From: Dehalococcoidales bacterium
Lineage (GTDB): Bacteria; Chloroflexota; Dehalococcoidia; Dehalococcoidales; RBG-16-60-22
Direction of reading: 5' to 3'
Assembly (NCBI GenBank): GCA_050018395.1
Contig: JBEKAC010000005.1
Span: forward strand, 4,794 to 68,793
DNA: 64,000 bases
The stretch's first letter is position 1; the number at the start of each line of letters is the position of its first letter. The position numbers were made by a program, and so were the translations under genes. Positions 6,031 to 44,970 of this stretch are shown here, piece after piece. Under the pieces are notes generated by a model, which saw nothing but the letters and a program-made list of their open reading frames with translations, made no database searches and was not told the DNA's origin.

Positions 6031-6141
6031 CAGATCTCCTTAAAAAGGTAATTACAGCCAATTATCAGGCACAGTTTTCAGGTTGTCAAGAAATTGACCG
6101 CAAAATAGCCGTCTGTTATTCTATGATGGAAGGTAGAGCAT

Positions 6142-13823: not shown

Positions 13824-13825
13824 TT

Positions 13826-14770: not shown

Positions 14771-14780
14771 CAGACTCCTT

Positions 14781-14830
14781 AAAAAGACAAATACAAAGGG
14801 GGCCGGGAGAACTATATCCCCCGACCCCCT
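14781..14830 (-). terminator. hairpin plus T-run between folD and acsD (terminator or attenuator)
   Basis: Minus strand reads gggggtcggggga...tcccggccccc followed by tttgtatttgtcttttt. Confidence 0.4.
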
Positions 14831-14864
14831 TATTATAGCGTATATTTGAGGTAATTTCAGGTAT

Positions 14865-20708: not shown

Positions 20709-20765
20709 TCCGGCTCAAGACCCCGATTGAATTCTCGTCCACATTCGATTATAATTTAAGAACAG

Positions 20766-20914
20766 TATCCGCTAGGGGTGCTCTGGCTGAGATGTCCCGA
20801 TATTATCGGGACGACCCTTGGAACCTGACCTCGGTAATACGAGCGTAGGGAAGCGGCGTAAACCAGAACCAGGGTTCGAGCGCTTCTAGCCGATATCCCT
20901 GGTTTTATTATTTT
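20766..20914 (+). promoter_or_regulatory. TPP (THI-box) riboswitch with a terminator-type expression platform
   Basis: ctaggggtgctctggctgagat...acccttggaacctgacctcggtaatacgagcgtagggaagcgg matches the THI-box consensus; then the aaccaggg/ccctggtt stem plus ttttattatttt, directly upstream of thiC. Confidence 0.9.
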
Positions 20915-30170: not shown

Positions 30171-30620
30171 ATGAATATTAAAACGGTAGCGAACAACCGC
30201 AAGGTTTTCCACAATTATTACGTGGGAGAGACGTTCGAGGCCGGCATCGCCCTGCTTGGTTCGGAAATAAAGTCTATCCGGGACGTGCGGGTGAGCCTTA
30301 GTGATGCTTACGTCAAACCGGAAAAGGGTGAGATGTGGCTGGTGAATGCGCATATCGCCCGGTACGCGGCGTCCAGCTATATGGGACATGATCCCACACG
30401 GCCGCGTAAGCTGCTGCTGCACCGGAAAGAAATTTTGAACCTCACCGGCAAGGTGGCGGAAAAGGGGTTGACGCTGGTAGCTACTAAAGTGTATCTCAAG
30501 GGAGGCCGGGCCAAAGTGGAAATAGCGCTGGCCAGGGGCAAAAAGCTCTATGATAAGCGTGAGGCCATCAGCCGCCGCGAGACGGACAGGGAGATGGAAC
30601 GGGCGATTAAAAGCCGCTAG
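30171..30620 (+). CDS. smpB: SsrA-binding protein
   Basis: 149 aa; NRKVFHNYYV...GSEIKSIR...LLLHRKEI...KLYDKRE pattern. Confidence 0.95.
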   Translation: MNIKTVANNRKVFHNYYVGETFEAGIALLGSEIKSIRDVRVSLSDAYVKPEKGEMWLVNAHIARYAASSYMGHDPTRPRKLLLHRKEILNLTGKVAEKGLTLVATKVYLKGGRAKVEIALARGKKLYDKREAISRRETDREMERAIKSR

Positions 30621-30639: not shown

Positions 30640-30989
30640 GGGGACGCGTGGTTTCGACAGGGGAAGTGCGCTATAGGAACGCAAGCAGAGGTGCCGCTCC
30701 CTCTTTAAACCGGTGGCAAAAAACAACTGCCGAACCAGTAATGGTTGCAGCCTAATTAACTAGGTTGCCATCCAACCTGACCTCACCCCGACGGGTCAGG
30801 ATTGGGTGCCGCAAAGTGGGGGTGCCGCTGCCCTGATGCCGGTATGGGCAGTGAAAGATTATCGGCTGGCCCGGCCCAACTCGGTCGGTTGAGGTGGGCG
30901 GGGCGAGACAAAAAGAGCCGACTAAGCTTGTAGTAAGTCCTGGACAGCTTCTTCTGGACGGGGAGTTCGACTCTCCCCCGTCTCCACCA
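30640..30989 (+). ncRNA. ssrA: tmRNA (ssrA), one-piece
   Basis: 5' ggggacgcgtggtttcgacagggg and 3' ggacggggagttcgactctcccccgtctccacca tRNA-like ends; candidate tag frame at 30729-30755 (GCC GAA CCA GTA ATG GTT GCA GCC TAA = AEPVMVAA). Confidence 0.9.
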
Positions 30990-31001
30990 GAAACACAGAT
31001 G

Positions 31002-31031
31002 AGCCTCCGGCGTAGAACCGGGGGCTTTTTC
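31002..31031 (+). terminator. terminator after ssrA
   Basis: agcctccgg...ccgggggct stem followed by ttttt. Confidence 0.6.
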
Positions 31032-31230
31032 ATAAAATCAGAACGTAAATTTCAGGCGCCTCATAAATGGGCTTCTGCCAGCTTTGGTTAAGGGTCACAA
31101 CCTCAATTTCCTTTGTGATAATTCTGTGAGTCTTTAACCAACCCTCGTGATAGTCCTGTGACAATGCCTCCGTAGGATATTTATGTGTCAAAAAATCCTC
31201 AAATGCAACGAAAGCTTCACCATATAACAA
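31030..31230 (-). CDS. doubtful small ORF in the AT-rich spacer after ssrA
   Basis: 66-aa ORF with no recognisable family and no clear RBS. Confidence 0.15.
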   Translation of the reverse strand: MLYGEAFVAFEDFLTHKYPTEALSQDYHEGWLKTHRIITKEIEVVTLNQSWQKPIYEAPEIYVLIL

Positions 31231-31361
31231 TTATCCCAAATGGATATTTTGGTAAGCTTTCGGAGTGAATTTGGACCTCGCAGTGCTAAGAAAAGGAGCC
31301 TACGTGACAGGACACTGCCATCTTCTTTACTTACTTATTGGCGCGTAGCGTTTTCAGACCT

Positions 31362-31583
31362 ATGCATAAACGTATCAAAATAAAAGATGTTGCCGAGTAT
31401 TGTATGGTGAGCAGGACTACTGTACGCAGATGGATTGACGGCGGGAAATTGCAGGCGCTCAGGCTGCCCAGTGGTCATTATCGAATCAGACAAGTGGATT
31501 ACAGGCATTTTCTTGAGAACTGTGGGATTCCTCTTAAGGAAAGCGCCTTTGCGTCCAAATATGAAAGAAAGGAGAAAAACTAA
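31362..31583 (+). CDS. excisionase/MerR-type helix-turn-helix DNA-binding protein at the head of the gvp cluster
   Basis: [38 protein letters not shown] is the excisionase-family HTH pattern; stop is 2 nt before the gvpA ATG. Confidence 0.65.
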
Positions 31584-31585
31584 AA

Positions 31586-31792
31586 ATGGCAGTACAGACT
31601 TCGATGGCGTCATCGGGACTGGCTGAGGTCCTGGACCGGATACTGGACAAGGGCCTCGTACTCGATGCCTGGGTCAGGGTTTCCCTGCTTGGCCTGGAAA
31701 TCCTTACTATTGAAGCCAGGGTTGTCCTGGCTGGCGTCGAGACCTACCTGAAGTATGCTGAAGCTATTGGCCTTACGGCTACAGCCGCCTAA
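31586..31792 (+). CDS. gvpA: gas vesicle major structural protein
   Basis: 68 aa; [54 protein letters not shown] is canonical GvpA. Confidence 0.95.
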
Positions 31793-31880
31793 AAATTTGG
31801 GAGCGATTTTGCCAAGGTACCCTTGGCTAACGAAGTGCACCTTGCCAACGTCTCTCCCCTGGCTTAATGAGGATAAAAAT

Positions 31881-32552
31881 ATGGAACCAGTTTTAAACCT
31901 TATCACCTCTTATGAAAACAGAATTGCCACGGTGGAAGAATTGATGACAACGGCTTACCAGGCCACGATGACTTCCGATGGTAGCTTCGATGTTCTCGAT
32001 GGGGAGAGAGAAAGACTGAAAATCGGTCTGCAGAAAACATTGACAAAAAACTGCTCTTTACGCAGAAAGGACTTTACCCGGCTTATGGAAAGAGTACTTT
32101 CTGATTCAGATAAGAAAAAGATCGCCATCCAGGAAGAGCAAATTCGGGTTAGAGAAAAAGTCAGAGAATACCTGGATGAACAAAAACAGCTCTCGAAATA
32201 CCTGCGGCAGAAGTTAGTCGAATTAGCACAAGAAAAGGCGGATAAAAGTAGTCTCGACACAGTTATCACTAACATCAGGGACATGTATGAGAATAAGGGC
32301 CAGCAGCTCTTTGTAATATTTCGTGAATTCCAACAGCGTTTAAAAATCTTTCAGAGGGAGCAAGAGGAAATCAATTTCAAACTGCAGAGACTTGTGGATA
32401 GAGGCGAATCCTTGAGTCTGGAAGACCTGAGGCAGCTGGAAACAACTGAAGCTCTCCAGAAGAGAACGACAGAACGAGAGTTGCGGCGTGGAGAAGTGGA
32501 AAGGTTACTGTCTCATTTTAAGCAGCAACGGCAGGAAAGCCGCCGCCATTAG
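31881..32552 (+). CDS. coiled-coil hypothetical protein (gvp cluster, no known family)
   Basis: 223 aa from ATG 31881 (gagga RBS); charged heptad-rich sequence. Confidence 0.5.
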   Translation: MEPVLNLITSYENRIATVEELMTTAYQATMTSDGSFDVLDGERERLKIGLQKTLTKNCSLRRKDFTRLMERVLSDSDKKKIAIQEEQIRVREKVREYLDEQKQLSKYLRQKLVELAQEKADKSSLDTVITNIRDMYENKGQQLFVIFREFQQRLKIFQREQEEINFKLQRLVDRGESLSLEDLRQLETTEALQKRTTERELRRGEVERLLSHFKQQRQESRRH

Positions 32553-32588
32553 CGGTAAAAATATTACATTTTAGGCAGGAGGACAAAG

Positions 32589-33530
32589 ATGGGGATTGCT
32601 TACGAGATGAAAAAACTTACCCGTGACATTGCTTCTTCCCATAAAGATCGGACGAAAAATATCCATCAAATAGGAGAAGAGGTAAAACGGACCAGGGTTC
32701 ATGCCCGGAATCTGGTCCATGGCTTTAAGAGCTCTCGACAGGAGACCAGCCGGCAGCTGATAAGAGATTTAGCCCGGGATAAAACAGGTAGAACGTCTGA
32801 AGTCAAAGCTATTTTAAAGGATTCTCAAGTTTTCCTGAAAGACTTTAAAGACTCTCAGAAAATTACTAATGCCCGTTTGAGAAAAGATTTATCTGCGGGT
32901 ACGGCCAAAAGACTGTCTGAAGTGCAAATGACCTTGGAAGACGTCCACAAACTAATAAGAAGATTCCACTCATCTCTTCAGGAAGTGAGTTATCAATTAA
33001 AGAAAGACCTGGGTGAGAACCGGGCAGAAGTCAAGTCCGAGGTAGAAAAACTGATTGGGGATGCCCAAAATCTGGTAACAGATTTCCACACCGCCCGTAA
33101 ACAGGCGGGTGGACAACTGAGGGAAGGCATGGCTCAGGACAGAGCTCATTTGGGGTCAGAGGTAAAACAGATGAGAAGTGACTTCCGTGAAGCTTGTGGA
33201 AGTTTGAGAGCCGATCTTAAAGAAGTAAGAGATGCATGGCAGGGTTTAGCGGCCATGATACAAACCAGGATGGGCGTGACGGCACGTCCCCCGGCGGCAA
33301 TCCTCCCGGAGGCGAAGGCGCCTGCAGCCAAACAGGGAAACTCAGACCTGGAGACAAAGTTGCTGGCGACCGTCAACGGGTACCCTGCAGGAGGAATATC
33401 CCTGGCTGATTTATCCGGTATCCTCAGGGTAGCTCCTGTCGTATTGGGACGGGCTTCAAAGGGGCTCATTAATAAGCGAACAATCCGTAAAAAGGGAAAA
33501 CTCTACTTTCCGGTTTCCAGCGGAAACTAG
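32589..33530 (+). CDS. 40-aa tandem-repeat protein with a C-terminal winged-helix-like domain; candidate GvpC-type shell-binding protein
   Basis: 313 aa; four clear repeats plus one degenerate 40-residue repeat (aa 28-227); C-terminal LLATVNGYPAGGISLADLSGILRVAPVVLGRASKGLINKRTIRKKGKLYFP. Confidence 0.55.
   Translation: MGIAYEMKKLTRDIASSHKDRTKNIHQIGEEVKRTRVHARNLVHGFKSSRQETSRQLIRDLARDKTGRTSEVKAILKDSQVFLKDFKDSQKITNARLRKDLSAGTAKRLSEVQMTLEDVHKLIRRFHSSLQEVSYQLKKDLGENRAEVKSEVEKLIGDAQNLVTDFHTARKQAGGQLREGMAQDRAHLGSEVKQMRSDFREACGSLRADLKEVRDAWQGLAAMIQTRMGVTARPPAAILPEAKAPAAKQGNSDLETKLLATVNGYPAGGISLADLSGILRVAPVVLGRASKGLINKRTIRKKGKLYFPVSSGN
32670..33269 (+). repeat. 5 x 120-nt (40-aa) in-frame tandem repeats inside the 32589-33530 CDS
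   Basis: Units: IGEEVKRTRVHARNLVHGFKSSRQETSRQLIRDLARDKTG / RTSEVKAILKDSQVFLKDFKDSQKITNARLRKDLSAGTAK / RLSEVQMTLEDVHKLIRRFHSSLQEVSYQLKKDLGENRAE / VKSEVEKLIGDAQNLVTDFHTARKQAGGQLREGMAQDRAH / LGSEVKQMRSDFREACGSLRADLKEVRDAWQGLAAMIQTR. Confidence 0.7.
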
Positions 33531-33598
33531 GCGGCCCAGGGATTAAATAGCGGCCTCTGCGGCAGGCGAGGAGGCTATTAAAAACAGCGAGGGATATT

Positions 33599-34036
33599 AT
33601 GCCGAGCGAAGCTCTGAGAAACATCAGAACGATGCGTCAGATTAAGTCCAGTCTTGAACTGGTTAAAAACCGGAGAGTCAGGACCACTAACTCGCTGTCT
33701 AAAACGGACGGCGAAATATCGCACCTGAAATCTTTGACTGACGGGCAGGTGGAACAGGTTCTGGCCAAAGAGAGAAAACGCTTTGCGGCCCGCGAGGCAG
33801 CGGTTGATAAATCACGGCAGCGGTTGCTTAAGGCAAGGGATAAACTGGCGGCGACCATCAATAAGAACCGAGCACTGACCGAATTGAGACATCAGCTGCA
33901 GCAGGTGCCTATAGAAAGAAAGAGCCTCGTACCGGAAAAGGCGTTGGTGCCAGCTCAAAAACCGAAACCTCCGACTCGTAAGAAAATAGTGCGAACTCGA
34001 AAACCGAAACTACGCCAGGTAAAGCTTAAATATTAA
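33599..34036 (+). CDS. coiled-coil protein with a Lys/Arg/Pro-rich tail (gvp cluster, no known family)
   Basis: 145 aa; C-terminal KPKPPTRKKIVRTRKPKLRQVKLKY. Confidence 0.45.
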   Translation: MPSEALRNIRTMRQIKSSLELVKNRRVRTTNSLSKTDGEISHLKSLTDGQVEQVLAKERKRFAAREAAVDKSRQRLLKARDKLAATINKNRALTELRHQLQQVPIERKSLVPEKALVPAQKPKPPTRKKIVRTRKPKLRQVKLKY

Positions 34037-34112
34037 ACCGCAGTATATACTCGTTGATTATTGAACGAAACGTTGCAGGCGAGTGACGCCAGCTAATTAA
34101 GAAGGCAGATAG

Positions 34113-35054
34113 ATGACTACGATGCAGGGAGAACCCGCCACGGTGCTCAGCACTCAACCGAGCATTGATTTTGTGGAAACGCCCTATATCACGAATCTTA
34201 CCAACCGGGCGCTCGATTACATCAGAGCGGGTTTCCCCATCCATCTCAGTGGACCGGCGGGGGTCGGTAAAACGACTCTGGCCATGCACATCGCCGCCCG
34301 GCTGGAGCGTCCTGTAGTGCTGGTCTGCGGCGACCATGAATTCGGCAGCTCCGACCTGATTGGCGGGCTTTCCGGCTATCATAAGAAATTTTTAAGGGAT
34401 AACTATATCCACTCGGTGCTCAGGACTGACGAGAGTATGACCTCGCAATGGGTGGACAGCCGGCTCACCACTGCCTGTCAATACGGGCTCACTCTCATCT
34501 ACGACGAGTTTACCCGCTCACGGCCGGAAGCCAATAACGTGCTGCTTTCCGTATTGGAAGAAAAGCTCCTGCCACTGCCTACCACCCGGGGCGGCGAGAA
34601 TTATTTAAAAGTGCATCCCGATTTTACCGCTATCTTCACATCTAATCCCGAGGAATACGCCGGGGTTTTTAAAAGTCCGGACGCGCTACGCGATAGGATG
34701 GTGACCATCGAACTGGGCAACTTCGACGAAGAAACGGAAATCGCAATTACTCGGTCCAAGGCCAAACTTTCTGCGGAGCAGGCACAATTTGTCGTCAGCC
34801 TGGTGAGGAAGGTAAGGGAGGCTAAGTCTGATAACCGGCTTATCCCCACCGTCCGGGGCTGTATTATCATCGGCAAGATACTAAACCAAAAAGGCGGGGC
34901 CACTAATAACGGCTTTAAACAAATTTGTCTTGATGTTTTAATGCCCGAAGTTTCCATAAAAGACAGGGAAAAGGTCAGTCAGGTAATAGATGAAGCTCTG
35001 CCTGGCTCTCCCCGGATGGAGGTAAATTATGCCCAAAAAAGAAAAAAACGGTAA
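34113..35054 (+). CDS. gvpN: gas vesicle AAA+ ATPase
   Basis: 313 aa; LSGPAGVGKTTLAMHIA Walker A, LIYDEFTRS Walker B; MoxR/GvpN-like. Confidence 0.85.
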   Translation: MTTMQGEPATVLSTQPSIDFVETPYITNLTNRALDYIRAGFPIHLSGPAGVGKTTLAMHIAARLERPVVLVCGDHEFGSSDLIGGLSGYHKKFLRDNYIHSVLRTDESMTSQWVDSRLTTACQYGLTLIYDEFTRSRPEANNVLLSVLEEKLLPLPTTRGGENYLKVHPDFTAIFTSNPEEYAGVFKSPDALRDRMVTIELGNFDEETEIAITRSKAKLSAEQAQFVVSLVRKVREAKSDNRLIPTVRGCIIIGKILNQKGGATNNGFKQICLDVLMPEVSIKDREKVSQVIDEALPGSPRMEVNYAQKRKKR

Positions 35055-35544
35055 GGTTGATGTTGATTTCGGCATGGGCCAGATAAGCCTGGGGGGATTG
35101 TTCAAGGGGCTGGGCAATTTCATGGACCTTGCCTCCAAATTAAGCGAAGAAGGGTATGAGAAAAAGGGTGAGATCAGCGGCTTGCCTAAAGGGGCTAAAG
35201 GGGTTTATGGCTTTAGTATCAGGACGCTGGCAGGTAAGCCGGTAATCGAGAGCTTTGGGAACATTAAGGAAACGGCCAGGGGGCCGGTGGTGGAAGAGGT
35301 CCGGGAACCGATGGTTGATATTTTTAATGAAAAAGACCGCATCCTAGTTATTGCCGAGTTACCCGGCATAGCGGAGAGCGAAATTAAAATCGAGGTAAAC
35401 GGGGATATCCTTAATCTGTCGGCGGCCGGTAGAGACCGGAAATACGCCAGGGAAGTCCTCCTCCCCGCCAGGGTTAAACCGGACTCACTAAAGAGTTCCT
35501 ATAAGAATGGGATTTTAGAAATCACCCTGGAAAAAGAAAAATAG
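35029..35544 (+). CDS. Hsp20/alpha-crystallin-domain protein (GvpH-like), paralog 1
   Basis: 171 aa; [27 protein letters not shown]...[14 protein letters not shown]; overlaps the gvpN end by 26 nt. Confidence 0.8.
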
Positions 35545-35561
35545 CCGGAGGAGATATTTTC

Positions 35562-37700
35562 GTGAGTGTTGCTATTGCGGTCGTGACTCTGCGCGTGGCT
35601 GAAGCAAAACCCCGGGACGTGGGGCGGGGTATCGCCCGGATTGACCCCCGGGACCTGGAAAAACTGGGCGCCGAGGTGGGCGATATTATTCAGGTGGAAG
35701 GCAAACGGAAGACGGCCGCCAAGGTCATGCCGGCCTATGCGGAAGACCGGGGAAAGTCGCTCATCCAGATAGACGGGCTTTTGCGGGGTAATGCCCAGGT
35801 CTCTCTGGATGAAAAGGTCACGGTGCAAAAGGCCAGCTTTTTACCGGCTGAAAAGATAGTACTCAACCCGCTGACTCTGGTGAGGTCCATCAGCCAGGAG
35901 AGAGACGCTAAGTATATCGGCACTTTATTGGACGGGCTGCCGCTGGTAGAGGGGGACACTATCAGGGCCAACCTCTTCGGCACCCGGAGCCAGGATTTTA
36001 CCGTGATCAGCTCTATCCCCAGGGGCCTGGTGCTGGTGCATGCCCGGACCAAAATAGAGGTTAAAGAGAAGACTGAACCTAGGGTTAAAGACTCCAAAAT
36101 ATCCTACGAAGATATCGGCGGTCTGGGAAAAGAATTGCACCGGATAAGAGAGATGGTTGAGCTGCCTCTCAAGTATCCTCAGATATTTGAACGTCTAGGA
36201 ATAGACCCTCCCAAGGGAGTGCTCCTTCATGGCCCTCCCGGGTGCGGCAAAACGCTGATTGCCCGCGCCGTGGCCAATGAAACAGCGGCTTATTTTACCC
36301 ATATCACCGGCCCGGAGATAATGGGCAAGTTTTACGGGGAGAGTGAAGGGCGGCTCCGGGCTGTCTTTGAAGAAGCCAAAAACAACGCCCCCGCCATTCT
36401 TTTCATTGATGAAATCGACGCCATTGCCCCCAAAAGGGAAGAGATGGGCGGCGAGAAGCAGGTGGAAAGAAGGGTGGTGGCCCAGCTGCTGGCCCTCATG
36501 GACGGACTGGAATCAAGGGGCGAGGTAATTGTCATCGGGGCCACCAATATCCCCAACTCTCTCGACCCGGCGCTGCGGCGGCCCGGCCGGTTCGACCGCG
36601 AGATCGCCATCAGCATCCCCGACCATAAAGGGCGCCTGGATATCCTCCAGATTCACACCCGGGGCATGCCCCTGGCGCAGGATGTCGACCTGGAAAGGCT
36701 TTCCCAGATTACTCATGGCTTTGTCGGGGCCGACCTGGAAGCCTTAAGCCGCGAGGCGGCGATGAATGCCCTCAGAAAAATAATGCCCAACATCGATTTT
36801 CAGCTGGACGAGATTCCGTATGAAACTCTCTTGAAACTGGAAGTAACGATGAATGACTTCACCGAGGCGCTTAAAGAGGTGGAACCCTCGGCGATTCGTG
36901 AGGTCTTTGTCGAGGTCCCCAACGTAAGATGGGAGGATGTCGGCGGCCTGGACGAAATGAAACAAAAATTAGTTGAGGCCGTGGAATGGCCGCTACGCTA
37001 TCCTCACCTGTTCCAGGAGGCCAACGTCAATCCTCCTAAAGGTATTCTCCTTTCCGGCTCACCGGGGACGGGAAAGACCCTGGTCGCCAAAGCGCTGGCC
37101 CATGAAAGCGAGGTAAATTTCATCTCGATAAAAGGCCCCGAGCTGATATCAAAATATATCGGCGAATCGGAAAGGGGCGTGAGAGAGATATTCCGGAAAG
37201 CCAAGCAGGCCAGCCCCTGCATTATCTTCTTCGATGAGTTTGATTCACTGGTGCCGGAACGCGGGACCAGCGATAATTCACAGGTTACCGAGAGAGTTAT
37301 CAGCCAGTTCCTCACCGAGCTCGATGGGCTGGAAGAGCTTAAAGGTGTACTGGTCCTGGCGGCTACCAACAGAAAGGACCTCATCGATTCCGCCATCGTG
37401 AGGACGGGCCGGTTTGATTTCACCCTGGAGTTCTCCTTACCTGATGAAAAGGCCCGTCGGGAAATATTTGGCATTCATGCCAGGGGCAAACCCCTCGCTC
37501 CTGACATCAATCTGGAAGTCATGGCCCAGAAAACAGAAGGTCTGGCGGGTTCGGATATCGAGGTCATCTGCCGCGAAGCCGCCATGATAGCTATCAGGAC
37601 GTTTATCAAAAATGAAGACAAGAAAGGCAAACTCAAAATTACCAGGCAGCATTTTGAAATGGCCATTGATTGGTTAAAAGCACAGAAAGGGGAAGAATAA
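35562..37700 (+). CDS. CDC48/VCP/VAT-type double-ring AAA+ ATPase
   Basis: 712 aa, GTG start. N-domain is [37 protein letters not shown]. Two AAA modules: [25 protein letters not shown] and [25 protein letters not shown]. Confidence 0.9.
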
Positions 37701-38456
37701 GTGTCCGGGCAAAGAAAATATATTTATGGAATTGTTCGGGAACACCAATTCAGGAGATTCGGCTTCACGGGGGTGGGAGAAGCTGATGTCTATACCATCA
37801 ACTGGCAAAAAATAGCTGCCATCGTCAGTGATACCGAGTTTTCGGAGATAGACCCGACCCGCAAGAACGTGCAGGCTCATACCATTGTCCAGGATGAGCT
37901 GTTGAAAGAGTACACCCTGCTCCCCATGAGCTTCGGCATGATTGCTGCCGGCGAAGATGAAGTTACAGGACTGCTGGAGAAGAATTACCAGGGTCTTACC
38001 GGCGAACTGGACCGCCTCGCCGATATGATAGAAGTTGAGCTGAAGCTCTACTGGGAACCGGAGACCATCATTAAAGAGCTGCAAGGTGAGAACCAGGAAC
38101 TATCCAAGATTAAGGCTAAAATAAATACGGCATCGTCGCTCGGGGAAAAACGGAATCTGTTAATCGAAGCCGGCAAACTGGTAGATGACATCGTTCTGGA
38201 CTGGAAGACCAGGTATGCCGGTATGGTTTACAGCGTTCTCTCAGAGCTATCTTCTCAGGCTAAAATGAATAATCCGGTGGGATTAAAGAACCTCCTTAAT
38301 GCCTCGTTCTTGATAGATAAGTCCGGTGAAAGTGAATTTAAAGAACAGGTCTACAAATTGGATGCAAACTTCCTGGGAAAAGTCAATTTTAAATATGTCG
38401 GGCCGATGCCTGCTTATAACTTCATTAATTTAAAGCTGGAGCCGGTAAAGTGTTAA
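37701..38456 (+). CDS. gvpF: GvpF/GvpL-family gas vesicle protein
   Basis: 251 aa; YIYGIV......VYTINWQKIAAIVSD...HTIVQDELLKEYTLLPMSFG pattern; GTG abuts the CDC48 stop. Confidence 0.85.
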   Translation: MSGQRKYIYGIVREHQFRRFGFTGVGEADVYTINWQKIAAIVSDTEFSEIDPTRKNVQAHTIVQDELLKEYTLLPMSFGMIAAGEDEVTGLLEKNYQGLTGELDRLADMIEVELKLYWEPETIIKELQGENQELSKIKAKINTASSLGEKRNLLIEAGKLVDDIVLDWKTRYAGMVYSVLSELSSQAKMNNPVGLKNLLNASFLIDKSGESEFKEQVYKLDANFLGKVNFKYVGPMPAYNFINLKLEPVKC

Positions 38457-38704
38457 CCGGATTACTATTTTCTGTCCTCGGTGTCCCCGTCACTCTTGCC
38501 AAGGAGATAATGGGCAAGCTTAGAGACGAGATTGACAAAGAACGCCTGATTACTGAAGAGTCGATTAAACAGAGACTCCAGCAGCTGCAACTACTGCTGC
38601 GGGACGGCGAGTTGAATGAAGAGGAATACGAAGGCATAGAGGAACAGCTTATAGCCAGGTTGAAGGCAGTAAGGGAATACCAAAAGAGCCAGGAGGTTAA
38701 ATAA
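38450..38704 (+). CDS. gvpG: gas vesicle protein G
   Basis: 84 aa; hydrophobic N-terminus then EEEYEGIEEQLIARLKAV, typical of GvpG; overlaps gvpF by 7 nt. Confidence 0.75.
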   Translation: MLTGLLFSVLGVPVTLAKEIMGKLRDEIDKERLITEESIKQRLQQLQLLLRDGELNEEEYEGIEEQLIARLKAVREYQKSQEVK

Positions 38705-39079
38705 ATGCCATTACAGGCGACGAAGGACGGGGGTAACACACTTGCGGACGTCATCGACCGCGTACTGGACAAGGGACTGATTATCAATGCCGATATCTGT
38801 GTTTCCATAGCCGGCGTTGAACTCCTGGGAATCAAGATACGGGCCGCCCTGGCATCTTTTGAGACAGCTGCCAAATATGGTCTGGAGTTCCCCAGTGGCA
38901 CCAACTATGAAAAAGCCGCCTGGAGGGAAACAGATGTCAGCAGGGAGATATGTCCGCAGTGCAGTAAAAAAGTCGTTACTGAAGAGCTTCTCAATGAGGG
39001 GTGTCCCTGGTGCGGGTGGATCAGCGCTAAGGCTAAAAAAGTTGAAGACAGAATAACACCCAAAATCGTGGCAGAGTAA
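38705..39079 (+). CDS. GvpA/J/M-family protein with a C-terminal CxxC...CxxC zinc ribbon
   Basis: 124 aa; LADVIDRVLDKGLIINADICVSIAGVELLGIKIRAALASFETAAKYG core, then CPQCSKK...GCPWCG. Confidence 0.8.
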   Translation: MPLQATKDGGNTLADVIDRVLDKGLIINADICVSIAGVELLGIKIRAALASFETAAKYGLEFPSGTNYEKAAWRETDVSREICPQCSKKVVTEELLNEGCPWCGWISAKAKKVEDRITPKIVAE

Positions 39080-39097
39080 AAAGGCGGGAACGTTAAA

Positions 39098-39613
39098 ATG
39101 AGCGCCGTGACGGTTAAAACTAAAAAAGGGCTGGACCAGCTCCTTCAGGTTCTGGATGAAAAGAGCCGGGCTATGTTGTGGCATCTGTGGTGGCACCGGC
39201 ATGCCGGTATCTCGGAATTAAGAGAGCTCATTGACGCTGCCAATGATTTTGAAGTTCTTTACCGGTTGAGAGAGGTCATCAACGAACAATCACTGAAGCT
39301 CTGGGGGAGACCGATAGTGAGCTTCGAACAGTCAAGGCTGGACTCCTCAAATGGGGCTATGGTTTTGTTTAGCTGGTGGTTTCTGGATGAAGAGAATGTT
39401 CCCATATCGGGTGGGAACAAACCGCTGGTAGACATATTCTATGAGAAAGACAGCATTTCCATCATCACTCAGGTGCCGACCTCGGTTGACCAGTCGCAAC
39501 GTGAAATATTGTATAAAAACGGTATCTTGAAGGTCCGGCTGGGAAAAAGGAAGAATAGTGGGACAGACAAAGGGAAAAAGCGGGAGGGGAGATTACACCC
39601 GGAACCCGCGTGA
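39098..39613 (+). CDS. hypothetical protein with a shortened Hsp20-like C-terminus (paralog 2)
   Basis: 171 aa; LVDIFYEKDSISIITQVP...ILYKNGILKVRLGK resembles the ends of an alpha-crystallin domain, with the middle missing. Confidence 0.5.
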   Translation: MSAVTVKTKKGLDQLLQVLDEKSRAMLWHLWWHRHAGISELRELIDAANDFEVLYRLREVINEQSLKLWGRPIVSFEQSRLDSSNGAMVLFSWWFLDEENVPISGGNKPLVDIFYEKDSISIITQVPTSVDQSQREILYKNGILKVRLGKRKNSGTDKGKKREGRLHPEPA

Positions 39614-40124
39614 AAAACAGTCGGAAGGCCCGGTGGAAGGCGTCCTTCGCGGTCTGGATGAGGTTATTCCCGGCTTCGGCGAGGTGGTAAAGGGGCTGGA
39701 AAAATCGGAAGCCTTTCAAAAAAGACTGGAAACCGCCAATGCCGAGGTGGAGCGCCGCCTGGGAAAAGCCCCTCTATCAAGCGGGGCGGTTAGCTCGAGA
39801 AGAGCTCCCTTTCAGGCCGGAAGAGCTTTGAAAATAAACCGGTCCGCGCCCGGTAAAGAATCACCGGTGCCATCATCGCCACGGGATGTGAATGCAGATA
39901 TATTTGACGAAGGTGACAACCTCGTAATCATCGCCGAGTTGCCCGGTGTAGATGAAAAGGACATCAAGATCGCGGTCAAAGAGAACCGGCTTAAGCTCTT
40001 TGCCCGGAGCCAGAGCCGCCAGTATAACAGGGAAATAGTCTTGCCTTGTAGCGTCAAAGAAAAACCGGGTTTGACTTATAAAAACGGGATTTTGAAAATC
40101 AGCCTGGAAAAGGAACCGAAATAG
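39558..40124 (+). CDS. Hsp20/alpha-crystallin-domain protein (GvpH-like), paralog 3
   Basis: DIFDEGDNLVIIAELPGVDEKDIKIAV...LTYKNGILKISLEK; the true start may be GTG 39633 (ggaagg RBS) rather than GTG 39558. Confidence 0.7.
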   Translation: MGQTKGKSGRGDYTRNPREKQSEGPVEGVLRGLDEVIPGFGEVVKGLEKSEAFQKRLETANAEVERRLGKAPLSSGAVSSRRAPFQAGRALKINRSAPGKESPVPSSPRDVNADIFDEGDNLVIIAELPGVDEKDIKIAVKENRLKLFARSQSRQYNREIVLPCSVKEKPGLTYKNGILKISLEKEPK

Positions 40125-40130
40125 GAGCCT

Positions 40131-40457
40131 ATGGCTATTAATATCGATGAGAATAACCTGAAACAAGGCGTACTGGGGCTGGTCATAGCCCTGGTGGAGG
40201 TAATCAAAGACACCCTGAAAATCCAGGCATTTAAAAGGATGGAGGGCGGAAGCTTAAGCGAGGAAGAATGCGAGCGGCTGGGAAAAGCTTTGATGGACCT
40301 GGATAACGCCCTGGAAGAAATCAAGACCGAACAGGGCATCATCGAATCGGTTCAGTCCGTGAGAGATGGGCTGGATGAGATTGTGGATGGCGTTATCGAT
40401 AGGATAGTAAATCCGGAAAAATGGCGGGATGAAGCCAAAAAAAGCCTGCCGGTTTAA
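40131..40457 (+). CDS. gvpK: gas vesicle protein K
   Basis: 108 aa; LKQGVLGLVIALVEVIKDTLKIQAFKRMEGGSLSEEECERLGKALMDLD is GvpK-like. Confidence 0.85.
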   Translation: MAINIDENNLKQGVLGLVIALVEVIKDTLKIQAFKRMEGGSLSEEECERLGKALMDLDNALEEIKTEQGIIESVQSVRDGLDEIVDGVIDRIVNPEKWRDEAKKSLPV

Positions 40458-40489
40458 TCGGGGAAAAGAACCTCTTGGGAGGCATATAA

Positions 40490-41656
40490 ATGGAAGAGAT
40501 ATTCTACGCTGTACTGGCACTGCGCACCGCCGGTAAGCCGGTCAATAAAGCGACAATACAGGCCGTGCTAAACCAGGCCGGCAAACAGGTTGACGAGACA
40601 GCCCTTGATGCTATGGCCGCCTTTGTTGAATCTTTAGCGAATGCCAGCGAGGGAAAAGAAGGAGCCATGGACCCCAGAATTATTAAGTTTCTGACCAGCG
40701 AACTAACGGGACATAAAGTGGAAACAACGCAGCTGGAGGCGCTTCTTGCCAAACTCAGCACGGCCGCTGCATCAGTTCCGGAGACTCTGAACGGTCACCT
40801 TGATACAGCACCGGAGGCGCAGGCCGGAGCCGCGGATGTGGAGTCTGAATCCCGCATTCACAGTAAAGGACGGTATGTCTATGGCGTGGCGATGGGGGAT
40901 AAGGAGGTCCGGCTGGGGCCGATAGGTATAGGGGGCAGCGAGGTTTACACTATCCCTTATAAAGACATCAGAGCGATCGTTCACAATTGCTCTACTGAGC
41001 CGTATCAGTCTACAGATGGCGCAACGGTAAAGGACTGGGTGAATATCCACGAAGGCGTTCTCGAAGCGGCCGGTGAACGACTTGGTATCGTTGTCCCCCT
41101 GGGCTTCGATACAATATTACAGTCAAAAGATGGCAGCACTTCCCCGGAAAATGTGGTAAACGACTGGCTCAAGGAGGATTATGACCGCCTTCGGGAGGTG
41201 ATGAGAAAGATAGAGGGTAAAGCTGAGTATGGAGTTCAGGTTTCCTATAAACTAAGTTTAGTCATTGAGCAGATATCGGAAAAGAGCGAAGAAATTAGAA
41301 GAATCAAGGAAGAGATAGCCACCAAATCCCCGGGTGTGGCTTATATGTATAAACAAAAGCTGGAAAGAGCCGTTAAGGCAGAGACCGAGCAGCTGGCCAA
41401 TGCCTGGTTCACCGATTTCTACACCAGGATTAAACCGCACACCGAGGATATCATCGTCGAGAAGACTAAAAAGCTGAATGATGGCAAAACAATGCTGCTT
41501 AACCTCTCCTGCCTGGTAGCCAGGGATAAAGTCGATAGCCTGGGTAAGGAATTGGAGGCTATCAATAATATGAACGGCTTCTCCGTTCACTTTTCCGGGC
41601 CCTGGCCGCCCTACAGCTTTGTGGCCAAACCCGTTGTTTTAGTTAAAGGAGAATAA
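40490..41656 (+). CDS. gvpL: GvpF/GvpL-family protein with an N-terminal archaeal ribosomal stalk P1/L12-like domain
   Basis: 388 aa; the N-terminal MEEIFYAVLALRTAGKPVNKATIQAVLNQAGKQVDETALDAMAAFVESL resembles archaeal L12/P1; from about aa 125 GRYVYGVA...VYTIPYKDIRAIVHN... is GvpF/L-like. Confidence 0.8.
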   Translation: MEEIFYAVLALRTAGKPVNKATIQAVLNQAGKQVDETALDAMAAFVESLANASEGKEGAMDPRIIKFLTSELTGHKVETTQLEALLAKLSTAAASVPETLNGHLDTAPEAQAGAADVESESRIHSKGRYVYGVAMGDKEVRLGPIGIGGSEVYTIPYKDIRAIVHNCSTEPYQSTDGATVKDWVNIHEGVLEAAGERLGIVVPLGFDTILQSKDGSTSPENVVNDWLKEDYDRLREVMRKIEGKAEYGVQVSYKLSLVIEQISEKSEEIRRIKEEIATKSPGVAYMYKQKLERAVKAETEQLANAWFTDFYTRIKPHTEDIIVEKTKKLNDGKTMLLNLSCLVARDKVDSLGKELEAINNMNGFSVHFSGPWPPYSFVAKPVVLVKGE

Positions 41657-41657
41657 A

Positions 41658-42014
41658 ATGCAGCCTACCCGGGACACTCATGCCACACTGGTAGACCTAC
41701 TCGATAGGGTACTGGAAAAGGGGCTGGTCCTTAATGCTGACCTGCTTATTAATGTCGCCGGCATTCCCCTCCTGGGGGTTAATTTGAGGGCCTGCCTGGC
41801 CGGGGTAGAGACCATGCTGAAATACGGCGTCTGGCAGGACTGGGATGCAGCCCAAAGGTCAATCGCCAACAAGGAGCGACAGCCTAAAAGGGCCAAAGAA
41901 CCAATAAGTGTTTCAGAATTGATACCGGAGCAAAATACTCCGTCTTCTCTATACAGGAAAACAGCCGCGGAATTTATAATAAATGAGGAGGCGAAAATCC
42001 AAGATGAACGCTAA
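41658..42014 (+). CDS. GvpA/J/M-family gas vesicle protein
   Basis: 118 aa; LVDLLDRVLEKGLVLNADLLINVAGIPLLGVNLRACLAGVETMLKYG. Confidence 0.8.
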   Translation: MQPTRDTHATLVDLLDRVLEKGLVLNADLLINVAGIPLLGVNLRACLAGVETMLKYGVWQDWDAAQRSIANKERQPKRAKEPISVSELIPEQNTPSSLYRKTAAEFIINEEAKIQDER

Positions 42015-42258
42015 TCAGGTAGTAGAAAAAGCGCGTAAAGAGTTTATCGGACTGGGTAAGAAGCCGACCGATGGGATTACCGGCCTTGCCAAGACGAAGG
42101 AAGGGTGGTCCATCCAGATAGAGTCACTGGAAAGGAAGGCCATTCCTGATACCATGGATGTGCTGGGTTTGTATGAACTCCGCATGGATGACGAAGGCCA
42201 TCTTCTCGGCCTTGACAGGAAGAAGCTGCGCAAGCGCGGCGAAACACATGAAGAGTGA
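42004..42258 (+). CDS. gvpO: gas vesicle protein O
   Basis: 84 aa from ATG 42004; GITGLAKTKEGWSIQIESLERKAIPDTMDVLGLYELRMDDEGHLLGLDRKKLRKRG fits the GvpO pattern. Confidence 0.75.
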   Translation: MNANQVVEKARKEFIGLGKKPTDGITGLAKTKEGWSIQIESLERKAIPDTMDVLGLYELRMDDEGHLLGLDRKKLRKRGETHEE

Positions 42259-42272
42259 AAGGAAAGTGCCAG

Positions 42273-42473
42273 ATGACAGAATGGAACAAGTGCCCGGGAT
42301 GCGGAAGCACTATCAGCGGTGACTCTGATTTCTGCCCGAATTGCGGAGAACCGTGGACCATCAAGTGTCCGGGTTGTGGCATGATACAGCGTTTCTGGAA
42401 AATGCATAAATTTTGTCACAATTGTGGCACGCGGATGGAATTGCATGGCGTCGTTAAGAGCCACCGGAAGTAG
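42273..42473 (+). CDS. double zinc-ribbon protein
   Basis: 66 aa; CPGCG...CPNCG...CPGCG...CHNCG; gaaaggaaag RBS; start could be GTG 42255. Confidence 0.55.
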   Translation: MTEWNKCPGCGSTISGDSDFCPNCGEPWTIKCPGCGMIQRFWKMHKFCHNCGTRMELHGVVKSHRK

Positions 42474-42520
42474 CTTGGTTTTGTGACGGATCTCATGCCC
42501 GAATATGCACCGGATAAGTG

Positions 42521-43210
42521 ATGAAAAAACTGTTTATTATTCCTATCATCCATATGAGTGCCGATATGGGTTCGGTGGCTTTAGCTCTGGATGAAGCGGC
42601 AGGTGCCAGGCTGACGCCGGAACTGTGGCAGAAGCACAAAGAAATCGTATCCGTTTTCTGGGATTCCATCGGACGATTTTTCGATTCTCTACAAGTCAGC
42701 GGTTTTAAAGTCTATCAGGATGGGGTCTTCGTTGACGGCGAAGAAGGAAATAGAATCATCAGGGAGGGCATCAAGCAGGGGAGTAAAAATTACGAGATTG
42801 TGGGCAGGCTTCTGGATAGAGGCGCCGTCCTGGTAAAAACCGAGTCTCTCCCCCTGGTAAAACAAGAATACAGCTATATCACCAAAATGACCCGCTCTAA
42901 ATCGTTAAAAGAAAAGGAAGTCGCTGCTCTCAGGTACAAACTGGCCCGGGGTAAACTGTTAAAGCAAAGGGATGAATTCATCGCCGGAAGAATCAATGAG
43001 ACCCTGGCTAAAGGTGAAACCGGTATCCTTTTCATCGGGGCATATCACGATGTTATCCGCAAACTGGCTTCTGAAATAAAAGTATCTCAGGTTAAAGAGG
43101 TTGCCCGGGTTAAGGACTACTATAATCAACTAATAAAAGCCAGGCGGTATGACAAATACCTCCAAAATCTCGGGGAGTATCTCACCTCGCCCGTTTCCGG
43201 CGTGTCATAA
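42521..43210 (+). CDS. hypothetical protein, last gene of the gvp cluster; weak TraB/Tiki-like GxxH pattern
   Basis: 229 aa; LFIIPIIHMS near the N-terminus and ILFIGAYHDV near the C-terminus. Confidence 0.45.
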   Translation: MKKLFIIPIIHMSADMGSVALALDEAAGARLTPELWQKHKEIVSVFWDSIGRFFDSLQVSGFKVYQDGVFVDGEEGNRIIREGIKQGSKNYEIVGRLLDRGAVLVKTESLPLVKQEYSYITKMTRSKSLKEKEVAALRYKLARGKLLKQRDEFIAGRINETLAKGETGILFIGAYHDVIRKLASEIKVSQVKEVARVKDYYNQLIKARRYDKYLQNLGEYLTSPVSGVS

Positions 43211-43233: not shown

Positions 43234-44970
43234 CTAGTCCTTTTTACTTGTCGATAAATTCTCCTCGACTATGCCTTGTGCCGGCTGTTCGTAGACATAC
43301 CTCTTGCCCCGCACCCAGGAAACCGCCGCCGCGATCAAACAGATTATCAGCGAAAACATCAATACTAACGTCAAACCATGGTGGAAGGGCGCCATGATGA
43401 GTTGAGGGAAAAAGGAGCGGCTCGTCAATTGTTGCGCCGCACCGGCGGGCAGCGAATTCAAAACCTGTGGACCCAGCAGGGTGCCCATGGGATTGTAACC
43501 CAGGAGCGCGGCAAAAAGGTAACCCATCGGTGGCATGTGGGCGATCTGTGACGCCGCCGCAGTGGGAACACTGTGTTGTACTAAACCGGAATACATCACC
43601 GCCGGCAGGGTGGCACTGAGTCCGACGGTCATTAAGGAGAAAAACACGCCGTTGGAGAGCGGCTGACCGGAATTCCAGAAAGCGCTCCGCATGCCGGAAC
43701 CCACGCCGCGGCAATCGGCCGGCAGGCTATTCATGACGGCGGCGTTATTCGGCGCGCCAAAAAGACCGTTCCCTAACCCCATGAGAACCAATATAAGCGC
43801 AAACTGCCAGTAAACAAAATTGACCGGTAAAAATATGAAGAGTGCGAAGCCTATGGTCACTAATATCATTCCCCCCATGGTAAACAGCCGGGCGCCAAAC
43901 CGGTCGGAAAGATAACCGGCGAGGGGGCCGGCAATCAAAAAACCGGCAGTTTGCGGCAACATGCAAATGCCGGCCCAGAGCGGAGTAACCTCAAAACTAA
44001 AGCCGTGAAGCGGCAGCCAGATACCCTGCAACCAGATGCTCACCATGAATTGCATGCCGCCGCTGGCCATCGCAGAAAGCAAACCCGCGATGCTGCCGGT
44101 GGTAAAAGCCCGGATACGGAAGAGGTCTATCTTAAACATCGGGTCTTTGACACGTTGTTCGATAATCACAAAAAGCGCTAAAACCGCGATACCGCCGAGG
44201 AGCATGGCTAAAACGAAAGGCGTGTCCCATGATGTGCTGGAAGTGTGCGAGGGTTGAATTCCGTAGGTGACGCCGATAAGGATCATCGTCAAACCGGCCG
44301 CGAACGTAAGATTGCCTAGCCAGTCGATTTTAGATTTCTTATGAATGCCAATTTCACGTAGCTGGAGATAAGCCCAGATCGTGCCGGCCACGGCGACCGG
44401 TATACTGGCGCGGAAAACCCAGCGCCAGCCAACCTCGGCCAGCAGACCGCCGGCGACGATGCCGATCATACTGCCGCCGATGAAGGCGATTTGATTGATG
44501 CCCATGGCAAAACCGCGCTGGTTGGGGGGAAAGGCATCGGTCAGAATGGCCATCGAATTCGCAAAAAGGCAGGCCCCCCCGATCGCCTGGACGGCCCGAA
44601 AGATAATCAGCTGCATCGCTCCCGCCGGCCCTGTGCTCCAGGTAAATGAAAGCAGAATCGAGCCCACGCTGAAGATGACAAAACCGAGGTTATAAATCCG
44701 GACACGGCCGAACATATCGCCGATACGCCCCAGCGTCACGATGAGCACTGCCAGGACGAGCGTATAACCTGTGATTATCCAGAGTAGGTAAGCCGAACTC
44801 TCGGGAGATAGTGGATTTAGATTAATGCCCCGGAATATCGCCGGGAGAGCAATCATGACGCAGGTGCCGTCGAGGGCGACCATGAATCCACCGAGTGTCG
44901 TATTCGATAAAGCGATCCATTTATAATTCTTTCCTACTGGTTTCTTCTGAATCGAAGTCAGGATAGACAT
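43234..44970 (-). CDS. MFS transporter, 14-TMS DHA2/EmrB-like
   Basis: 578 aa; GRIGDMFGRVRIY motif A-like loop; many TM segments. Confidence 0.85.
   Translation of the reverse strand: MSILTSIQKKPVGKNYKWIALSNTTLGGFMVALDGTCVMIALPAIFRGINLNPLSPESSAYLLWIITGYTLVLAVLIVTLGRIGDMFGRVRIYNLGFVIFSVGSILLSFTWSTGPAGAMQLIIFRAVQAIGGACLFANSMAILTDAFPPNQRGFAMGINQIAFIGGSMIGIVAGGLLAEVGWRWVFRASIPVAVAGTIWAYLQLREIGIHKKSKIDWLGNLTFAAGLTMILIGVTYGIQPSHTSSTSWDTPFVLAMLLGGIAVLALFVIIEQRVKDPMFKIDLFRIRAFTTGSIAGLLSAMASGGMQFMVSIWLQGIWLPLHGFSFEVTPLWAGICMLPQTAGFLIAGPLAGYLSDRFGARLFTMGGMILVTIGFALFIFLPVNFVYWQFALILVLMGLGNGLFGAPNNAAVMNSLPADCRGVGSGMRSAFWNSGQPLSNGVFFSLMTVGLSATLPAVMYSGLVQHSVPTAAASQIAHMPPMGYLFAALLGYNPMGTLLGPQVLNSLPAGAAQQLTSRSFFPQLIMAPFHHGLTLVLMFSLIICLIAAAVSWVRGKRYVYEQPAQGIVEENLSTSKKD

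Follow-up and report, generated by a model that had tools for sequence, protein, structure and literature searches.

We analysed a 64,000-nucleotide (nt) stretch of the genome of a Dehalococcoidales bacterium (contig JBEKAC010000005.1, positions 4,794 to 68,793; hereafter the window, numbered from its first letter), in which a 19-gene gas-vesicle (gvp) module follows ssrA, the gene for transfer-messenger RNA (tmRNA). The analysis suggests that positions 31107-43210 hold an intact gas-vesicle operon of a Dehalococcoidia type, maintained by selection, and that this operon is an old, relocating module and not a recent import from a distant source. We give this interpretation a probability of about 0.6. 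In our reading of the sequence comparisons, the module has been in the lineage for approximately as long as the compared species have diverged, and has relocated among sites adjacent to tRNA and tmRNA genes. The host genome is a metagenome-assembled genome (MAG) of the class Dehalococcoidia (2.5 Mb in 85 contigs).

Gene content and borders of the module

As shown in Table 1, all long open frames between ssrA and position 43210 lie on the plus strand. The first of them (ATG at 31362) begins 372 nt past the 3' end of ssrA and the final one ends at 43210. An earlier note, made from the letters of this DNA alone, had described a plus-strand array of 19 genes about 370 nt past the tmRNA gene, and this description proved accurate; position 30640, given there as the start of the region, is the start of the tmRNA gene itself. 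Nucleotide homology to other contigs (at least four) opens at 31107, which is 117 nt past the 3' end of ssrA, and closes at 43208, in the stop codon of the last gene, so that the module measures 12.1 kb and its homology limits exactly enclose the 19 genes. Beyond 31107 and 43208 the sequences of the window and its relatives are unrelated. The homology ends are identical and sharp across five different genomic contexts; on the left side, the relatives share a further 64 nt or so of homology beyond the end seen in the window. Four contigs from metagenomes and several named contigs from MAGs carry these genes in unchanged order, from the helix-turn-helix (HTH) gene to the gene of a 230-amino-acid (aa) protein.

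The ratio of nonsynonymous to synonymous substitutions (dN/dS), calculated against three relatives, was 0.04-0.32 in every one of the 19 genes, the five without a known family and the double zinc-ribbon gene among them. Judged by their sequences, the 19 genes are all intact, and purifying selection acts on each of them. Because the gene order is conserved, the homology limits coincide and dN/dS is low throughout, the count of 19 describes a real evolutionary unit. An exact copy of the GvpL protein is encoded on nine contigs, and the six that were examined, each from another sample, are 99.99-100% identical to the window. One independent contig covers smpB, ssrA, the entire cluster and the right-hand genes, and another covers the right junction; since independent assemblies reproduce both junctions, neither of them is an assembly artefact. 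Two assemblies encoding identical GvpL proteins (L059 and L060) contain different gvpN frames: the one in L060 (3197-4135) is intact (312 aa) and the one in L059 (3355-4292) is split (167 aa and 145 aa), which reflects either a frameshift variant or an assembly error.

The 19 genes of the module were scanned with Pfam and NCBIfam profiles at curated cut-offs, and the first four genes to its right (through 49120) with Pfam. GvpF/L, GvpG, GvpJ/M, GvpK and GvpO (Pfam) as well as GvpN (NCBIfam TIGR02640) were all detected above the cut-offs, and all frames are open. To judge from these matches, none of the core genes (A, F, G, J/M, K, L, N and O) is missing, as the earlier note had stated, and each gene named there was recovered by the scan. 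GvpA matches the Anabaena shell structure (PDB 8GBS) over its full length (residues 1-68, E 1e-27); it is 97% identical in the relatives and has a dN/dS of 0.04. The double zinc-ribbon gene, absent from the gene calls of the Joint Genome Institute (JGI), is 90-94% identical in the relatives, with a dN/dS of 0.05-0.09. No Pfam or NCBIfam family was found above cut-off for five genes (31881-32552, 32589-33530, 33599-34036, 39098-39613 and 42518-43210).

Most of the genes are preceded by Shine-Dalgarno sequences, and at nine of the 18 junctions the genes overlap or lie no more than 6 nt apart. These junctions include a TAA-GTG junction at 37698-37703 and overlaps of 7 nt (gvpF/gvpG), 11 nt (the second gvpJ-like gene/gvpO) and 4 nt (gvpO/zinc-ribbon gene); those of them that had been noticed before (the TAA-GTG junction and the 7-nt and 11-nt overlaps) were correctly placed. 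From this arrangement the operon looks translationally coupled.

Two direct repeats of the form TGTGA-N6-TGTGA (31114-31129 and 31146-31161) were found in the non-coding leader of the module; they are spaced 32 nt apart and conserved in the relatives. This motif occurs nowhere else in the window (2 occurrences versus 0.12 expected). The first gene encodes a small HTH_17 protein which scored 35 with the BldC subfamily model (cut-off 77), and thus falls within the broad family but outside BldC proper. The gene is kept at the head of Dehalococcoidia-type modules (dN/dS 0.21-0.27) and is separated from gvpA by 2 nt. Its position, this short gap and the conserved leader repeats suggest that the HTH protein is the regulator of the operon, and the TGTGA repeats are candidate operator sites for it.

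Table 1. Features of the gas-vesicle module and its immediate surroundings (window coordinates)
Feature	Coordinates	Strand	Evidence
glmS, upstream of smpB	28311-30092		Pfam SIS and GATase
smpB, left chromosomal flank	30171-30620	+	72-83% identity to same-genus SmpB; JGI: PF01668
tmRNA (ssrA)	30640-30989	+	ARAGORN; Rfam RF00023, 169.3 bits, full length; intact, CCA end
Conserved non-coding leader	31107-31361	+	DNA homology to at least four contigs begins at 31107
Small HTH_17 (excisionase/BldC-like) DNA-binding protein	31362-31583	+	PF12728, 43.4 (cut-off 27); TIGR01764, 33.7 (cut-off 28.8)
gvpA, shell protein	31586-31792	+	PF00741, 54 bits; PRK09371, 120.5 (cut-off 100)
223-aa helical protein adjoining gvpA, no known family	31881-32552	+	58-78% identity in close modules, 25-30% in other phyla; dN/dS 0.09-0.14
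313-aa protein, five tandem 40-residue amphipathic repeats and 80-aa C-terminal domain	32589-33530	+	Self-similarity
145-aa coiled-coil protein, very basic tail	33599-34036	+	56-72% conserved; dN/dS 0.13-0.15
gvpN, AAA+ ATPase	34113-35054	+	TIGR02640, 327 bits (cut-off 267); PF07728
Hsp20 small heat-shock protein	35029-35544	+	PF00011; NF041800 'archaeal Hsp20', 148 bits (cut-off 140)
CDC48/VAT-type double AAA+ unfoldase (N, D1, D2)	35562-37700	+	TIGR01243, 962 bits (cut-off 803)
gvpF	37701-38456	+	PF06386, 196 bits; PDB 6L5D, E 4e-14
gvpG	38450-38704	+	PF05120, 38 bits
GvpJ-like, C-terminal CxxC...CxxC zinc ribbon	38705-39079	+	PF00741, 59 bits; cysteines in translation
171-aa protein, new N-terminal region and truncated Hsp20-like C-terminus	39098-39613	+	BLASTP; NCBIfam Hsp20, 27 bits, below cut-off
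Second Hsp20 / GvpH-like	39558-40124	+	PF00011, 25.6 bits; weak GvpH match
gvpK	40131-40457	+	PF05121, 64 bits
GvpL with stalk P1/P2-like N-terminal domain (residues ~1-55) and linker	40490-41656	+	PF06386, 201 bits, residues 127-378
GvpJ/M-like	41658-42014	+	PF00741, 56 bits
gvpO	42004-42258	+	PF05800, 72 bits; start per JGI
Double zinc-ribbon protein, 72 aa	42255-42473	+	PF12773, 37.6 bits
230-aa protein of unnamed family, last gene of the module	42518-43210	+	Conservation; no Pfam/NCBIfam match
Major facilitator superfamily (MFS) transporter, right flank, outside the module	43234-44970	-	PF07690

A hairpin followed by a T-run is present 3' of ssrA (approximately 31003-31030), and the tag peptide of the tmRNA as read by ARAGORN (AEPVMVAA) is unusually short. 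On the other side of the module, the orthologue of the MFS transporter lies 212 kb away from smpB in one relative (G012). Further upstream, a thiamine pyrophosphate riboswitch (20764-20868; Rfam RF00059, 70 bits) precedes a 431-aa open frame (20930-22225).

Unfoldase, Hsp20 proteins and other accessory proteins

The CDC48 protein contains the domains PF02359 and PF02933 and two PF00004 domains, its N domain is present, and the Walker A/B motifs of both rings are complete (GPPGCGKT / DEID and GSPGTGKT / DEFD). Its best PDB match is VAT of Thermoplasma (5G4F, E 7e-220). The C-terminal HbYX motif, which docks such motors on proteasomes, is not present in the protein, and the unfoldase therefore probably works without a 20S proteasome. 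We surveyed the neighbourhoods of its 80 closest homologues (64-92% identical) in contigs representing one genome per species and approximately 20 phyla, including Dehalococcoidia, Atribacterota, Desulfobacterota (with the cultured Desulfoluna spongiiphila), Nitrospirota, anammox Planctomycetota, Omnitrophota and Aminicenantes. In nearly all contigs of this set that reach past the CDC48 gene, gvpN, hsp20 or gvpF adjoins it. Since nearly all informative contigs show gvp neighbours, this CDC48 lineage is dedicated to gas-vesicle clusters, and the Hsp20-CDC48 set recurs in such clusters of about 20 phyla. Our literature search found no paper linking Cdc48 to bacterial gvp clusters or describing an embedded Hsp20-CDC48 set. 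The nearest published case concerns Hsp20 together with an ArsA/Get3-like ATPase in the gvp clusters of several phyla, where the ArsA-type ATPase and Hsp20 were proposed to energise a step of biogenesis (Castillo and Saier 2010, PMC2963123).

Besides the Hsp20 gene upstream of the unfoldase gene, two more Hsp20-like genes had been proposed. One of them (39558-40124) is a regular Hsp20 gene, whose start may be the GTG at 39633 (the JGI call is 163 aa long). The other (39098-39613) encodes only a truncated remnant of the fold: in BLASTP comparisons with both Hsp20 genes, the first and last strands alone could be aligned, on either side of a gap of about 34 residues.

The GvpL protein carries an N-terminal extension of 125 residues. 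Over residues 3-49 it gives a match to the N-terminal dimerisation domain of the archaeal ribosomal stalk protein aP1 (PDB 3A1Y, E 3e-4), and the AlphaFold2 model of the extension is confident at residues 1-55. The top Foldseek matches in PDB are P1/P2 N-domains (probability 0.99-1.0, root-mean-square deviation 1.0 Å over 45 columns), with poor E-values reflecting the shortness of the domain. Membership of the P1/P2 family is not proven by these matches, because the score of PF00428 on the extension (19.4 bits) is below the cut-off (28.1). On the sequence and model evidence, 'P1-GvpL fusion', the term used by the earlier note, is nevertheless the best description of this gene product, given the sequence and fold matches to stalk P1. 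The P1-like domain was found only in Dehalococcoidia-type modules. A search with the extended GvpL returned 894 homologues, the best 120 of which are full-length (55-75% identity); the few of these 120 that bear a source name are from Dehalococcoidia or Chloroflexota.

The five repeats of the 313-aa protein are seen as self-similarity at an offset of 40 residues (z = 10.6), and its dN/dS is 0.24-0.32. In the Pfam scan the protein gave only weak matches to amphipathic-helix families, and neither Pfam nor NCBIfam reported a GvpC family for it. The GvpC of cyanobacteria has 33-residue repeats and is encoded between gvpA and gvpN in gvpA-C-N clusters. By analogy, the 313-aa protein is a candidate GvpC-like outer scaffold, the likeness being limited to architecture and gene position.

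The 230-aa protein encoded by the last gene belongs to a large family (at least 1356 clusters at 50% identity), whose members are present in 49 of the 80 CDC48-type gvp loci. Nine of its residues are invariant (H12, H40, D68, N91, E109, E117, R151, D152 and H177). It is probably an enzyme. Its AlphaFold2 model is confident (mean predicted local distance difference test, pLDDT, 92.5) and has no fold match in PDB; a TraB/GumN-like fold, which had been considered, was set aside as unsupported. The protein is a candidate for a new enzyme tied to gas-vesicle clusters.

Location, divergence and distribution of the module

In two relatives, the neighbours of the module are 72-93% identical to genes located on contigs C45 and C2 of the genome analysed here, which means that the chromosomal site of the module differs among close relatives. 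The C45 site of this genome contains no module, and an unrelated open reading frame for a 411-aa membrane protein beside a tRNA-Glu gene is present instead. In five of approximately 11 contexts, a tRNA or tmRNA gene, or a fragment of one, is located no more than 1 kb from an end of the module, namely (i) ssrA in the window, (ii) tRNA-Glu (L057), (iii) tRNA-Gly (L068), (iv) tRNA-Leu (L062) and (v) a partial tRNA-Val (L063). With 48 tRNA/tmRNA genes in 2.5 Mb, such proximity is expected in about 4% of contexts (binomial tail approximately 3e-5). In L063, which is derived from a Dehalococcoidia MAG, a tRNA-Val(tac)-like gene reduced to its 3' two-thirds with the CCA (833-907) directly abuts the left end of the module and has no matching 5' acceptor strand; in its sequence, this fragment bears the signature of an attachment-site (att) fragment.

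The module of the window starts on the 3' side of ssrA, as would an island targeted to this gene. In another genome of the same genus (G008; contig C6, L054), 28 nt from the 3' end of ssrA are exactly repeated 5.2 kb downstream (621-648 and 5866-6209). The insert contains a methyltransferase fragment, a P-type cation ATPase and CorA, and no integrase was found after ssrA in the relatives when the recombinases of the present genome were used as queries. The insert has the look of an island that was integrated at ssrA and has since decayed, no integrase being left in it. Since the 28-nt repeat bounds this insert, ssrA is an attachment site that has been used in the genus. The only other copy of the ssrA 3' end in the present genome is on contig C16 (7671-7698; 24 of 28 nt, the last 17 exact), 490 nt past a tRNA-Val(tac) gene. 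ARAGORN does not call it a tRNA, and it may be what is left of an old att site. We considered whether this copy might belong to an island extending over two contigs (more than 40 kb) and dropped the idea, as the neighbours of the C16 copy match nothing that follows ssrA in the relatives. Downstream of ssrA, every same-genus genome has different genes and the right-hand region of the window is a patchwork; an attempt to define island limits by synteny failed, there being no same-genus synteny after ssrA.

In a close relative (L058), a gene for a large serine recombinase (13632-14951) is located 830 nt past the module. A homologue of this recombinase (85% identical) is present in the genome analysed here on contig C41, where it adjoins a tyrosine-integrase fragment.

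The GC content of the module is 49.8%, compared with 53.4% for the genome (standard deviation 2.7% in windows of the same size), which places it at the 9th percentile; GC at third codon positions (GC3) is at the 14th percentile. The codon-usage score of the module is inside the range of the genome, and the first 2 kb have a GC content of 43-47%. The earlier note had contrasted about 40% GC in the module with about 58% elsewhere: the module is indeed lower in GC, but the contrast is far weaker than that. Synonymous divergence (dS) from the relatives is 0.74-0.85 for the module and 0.93-1.12 for flanking chromosomal genes. In a tree of CDC48 proteins, the window is sister to a MAG of Dehalococcoidia from a peat bog, inside a Dehalococcoidia clade (support 99).

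GvpF/L genes were found in none of 17 genomes of the same genus; of the 401 genomes sampled across the class, 34 (approximately 8%), belonging to 32 of 219 genera, have one. None was detected in the complete genomes of one family of the same order, which presumably include those of cultured organohalide respirers. Dehalococcoidia-type modules (CDC48 71-83% identical) were also observed on contigs assigned by binning to Acetothermia, Atribacterota and Clostridia (L065, L069 and L076, the last with a 90% identical gvpA), which reflects either transfer between phyla or mis-binning. One related module (L067) is from a lake water-column sample, according to its contig label.

Interpretation and comparison with known systems

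The sequence comparisons show which genes the module contains, that they are intact and under selection, where the module ends, that its locus differs in relatives and that CDC48 is linked to gvp clusters. The mode of relocation, the expression of the operon and the roles of its accessory proteins are inferred as follows. The module was probably carried as cargo of integrative elements targeting tRNA and tmRNA genes; the copy beside ssrA would be old, its integrase and att repeat having decayed. The HTH protein would bind the paired TGTGA repeats and control one long transcript. GvpA would form the ribbed shell, which the two GvpJ/M-like proteins together with GvpF, GvpL, GvpG, GvpK and GvpO would nucleate and extend, and GvpN would power its growth; for GvpA, F, L, G, J, M, K, N and O these roles are those established in haloarchaeal and bacterial systems (e.g. 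PMC6107691). The stalk-P1-like domain most likely dimerises GvpL. The Hsp20 proteins may hold the very hydrophobic shell subunits, a holdase function which fits the finding in Haloferax that GvpH keeps GvpM from aggregating (PMC6107691). The family of the CDC48/VAT-type unfoldase and its strict linkage to gvp genes suggest that it extracts shell subunits from aggregates or chaperones, so that they can be assembled or recycled. The 40-residue-repeat protein may coat the outside in the manner of GvpC, and the last gene may encode an enzyme of an unnamed kind. The product would lend buoyancy to a planktonic anaerobe.

Several results weigh against this interpretation. As already noticed from the letters, there is no tyrosine integrase (Phage_integrase) on the 69-kb contig (C5) and no second copy of the ssrA 3' end, with up to three mismatches, in the 33 kb of the window downstream of the gene. 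The Pfam scans detected no recombinase domain in the module or the four genes to its right, serine recombinases not having been searched elsewhere on the contig. No recurrent mobility genes were found beside the modules of the relatives, the flanks of which are mostly housekeeping genes; only one serine recombinase and one IS110 transposase occur nearby and neither travels with the module. Because same-genus genomes share no synteny after ssrA, its absence there is weak evidence of an island. The similar dS of module and flanks equally fits vertical descent with loss and rearrangement. Consensus promoter and terminator sites were no more common than in shuffled sequence. Finally, we found no report in the literature of gas vesicles having been seen in any member of Dehalococcoidia.

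These results bear differently on the alternatives. A recent foreign island, integrated site-specifically at the 3' end of ssrA, would explain why the module directly follows this gene, is absent from all 17 congeners and has a somewhat lower GC content, particularly in its first 2 kb; the use of ssrA as an attachment site in G008 and the partial copy on C16 also agree with it. We nevertheless consider it very unlikely, in view of the missing integrase and repeat, the mild deviation in GC and GC3, a dS about equal to that of chromosomal genes, the exclusively Dehalococcoidia origin of the nearest CDC48 relatives, and the lack of any link between the neighbours of the C16 fragment and the ssrA neighbourhoods of the relatives. 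The tmRNA-site island proposed by the earlier note is thus upheld as regards absence from congeners, differing loci and tRNA proximity, but the mild composition, the similar dS and the nesting of CDC48 among Dehalococcoidia speak against it. Purely vertical descent, in which an ancestral cluster was lost in most species, its surroundings were rearranged and its adjacency to ssrA arose by chance, is a serious rival, consistent with the similar divergence of module and flanks, the nesting of the module inside the Dehalococcoidia clade, the generally poor synteny in the genus and the lack of mobility genes linked to the module. However, it does not readily account for the identical sharp homology ends in five contexts, the significant excess of tRNA/tmRNA genes or fragments at module ends, the partial tRNA-Val abutting the module in L063, the near-identical architecture on contigs assigned by binning to Acetothermia, Atribacterota and Clostridia, or the patchy distribution among genera, and we regard it as unlikely on the whole.

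It is also conceivable, and in our opinion distinctly unlikely, that the cluster is kept without producing buoyant vesicles in this host, being cryptic or serving another role. Such roles, or crypticity, have been discussed for the gvp clusters of soil actinomycetes. The lack of vesicle observations in the class agrees with this possibility, as does the finding that many native clusters gave no vesicles in heterologous hosts (Hurt et al., PMC10344784); against it are the strong purifying selection on all 19 genes, most pronounced in the low dN/dS of gvpA, the complete core set, and the related module from a lake water column. The interpretation that we favour, that of an intact and relocating operon, would predict buoyancy control in Dehalococcoidia. 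To our knowledge, no cultured member of this abundant anaerobic group has been reported to float. In line with the earlier note, our literature search found no experimental work on gas vesicles in Dehalococcoidia, the mentions retrieved only noting the presence of genes or concerning other Chloroflexota.

How an extremely aggregation-prone protein comes to form the 3-nm wall of gas vesicles is a question to which we know of no solution. As a tentative proposal, which we hold with less than even confidence, the Hsp20, CDC48/VAT, zinc-ribbon and 230-aa proteins may constitute a dedicated, previously undescribed machine for assembly and quality control of the shell, in which the unfoldase feeds or recycles GvpA and the P1-like domain organises the nucleation complex. 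If so, this would be a new, client-specific use of the Cdc48 motor in bacteria, and the machine would explain the frequent failure of native clusters in heterologous hosts. Gas-vesicle clusters are mined as acoustic reporter genes and many fail in foreign hosts; the cluster of Desulfobacterium vacuolatum is reported to have formed vesicles in E. coli (Hurt et al., PMC10344784). Being compact, intact and sharply bounded, with its own holdases and unfolding motor and two unexplained conserved parts (the stalk-P1-like domain of GvpL and the enzyme-like product of the last gene), the module is a handy 12-kb test object.

Compared with the genomic islands known to occupy the 3' ends of ssrA and tRNA genes, the module shares the adjacency to ssrA, the absence from congeners and the presence of related copies beside tRNA genes or a fragment of one; in contrast to them it has neither an integrase nor a flanking direct repeat, and its composition deviates mildly. 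With VAT of Thermoplasma acidophilum (PDB 5G4F) and archaeal Cdc48, its ATPase shares the N domain, the D1 and D2 rings, intact Walker motifs and pore loops; it differs from them in being bacterial, dedicated to gvp clusters and devoid of the HbYX motif. The gvp clusters with Hsp20 and an ArsA/Get3-like protein (PMC2963123) likewise place a chaperone-type ATPase and Hsp20 inside the operon, whereas the ATPase of the present module is an unfoldase of the CDC48/VAT type and no ArsA homologue is present in the module.

The canonical gas-vesicle clusters, i.e. those of Halobacterium (gvpACNO/gvpDEFGHIJKLM), cyanobacteria (gvpA-C-N-J-K-F-G-V-W), Bacillus megaterium (gvpB-U) and Serratia 39006, have GvpA, F/L, G, J/M, K, N and O in common with the module, and the likeness extends to an Hsp20-fold, GvpH-like protein and a repeat protein in the gvpC position. 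In comparison with these clusters, (i) the module adds the CDC48/VAT double-ring unfoldase and two Hsp20 proteins plus a truncated third, (ii) its GvpL carries a stalk-P1-like domain and one GvpJ a zinc ribbon, and a separate double zinc-ribbon protein is encoded, (iii) its regulator is of the HTH_17 type and not GvpD/E or GvrA, (iv) the unit of its repeat protein is 40 residues long and matches nothing in Pfam or NCBIfam, and (v) its final gene represents a conserved family without a name. Gas-vesicle clusters as such are known and the island aspect is ordinary; what is of interest here is the embedded chaperone/unfoldase set together with the unexplained conserved parts.

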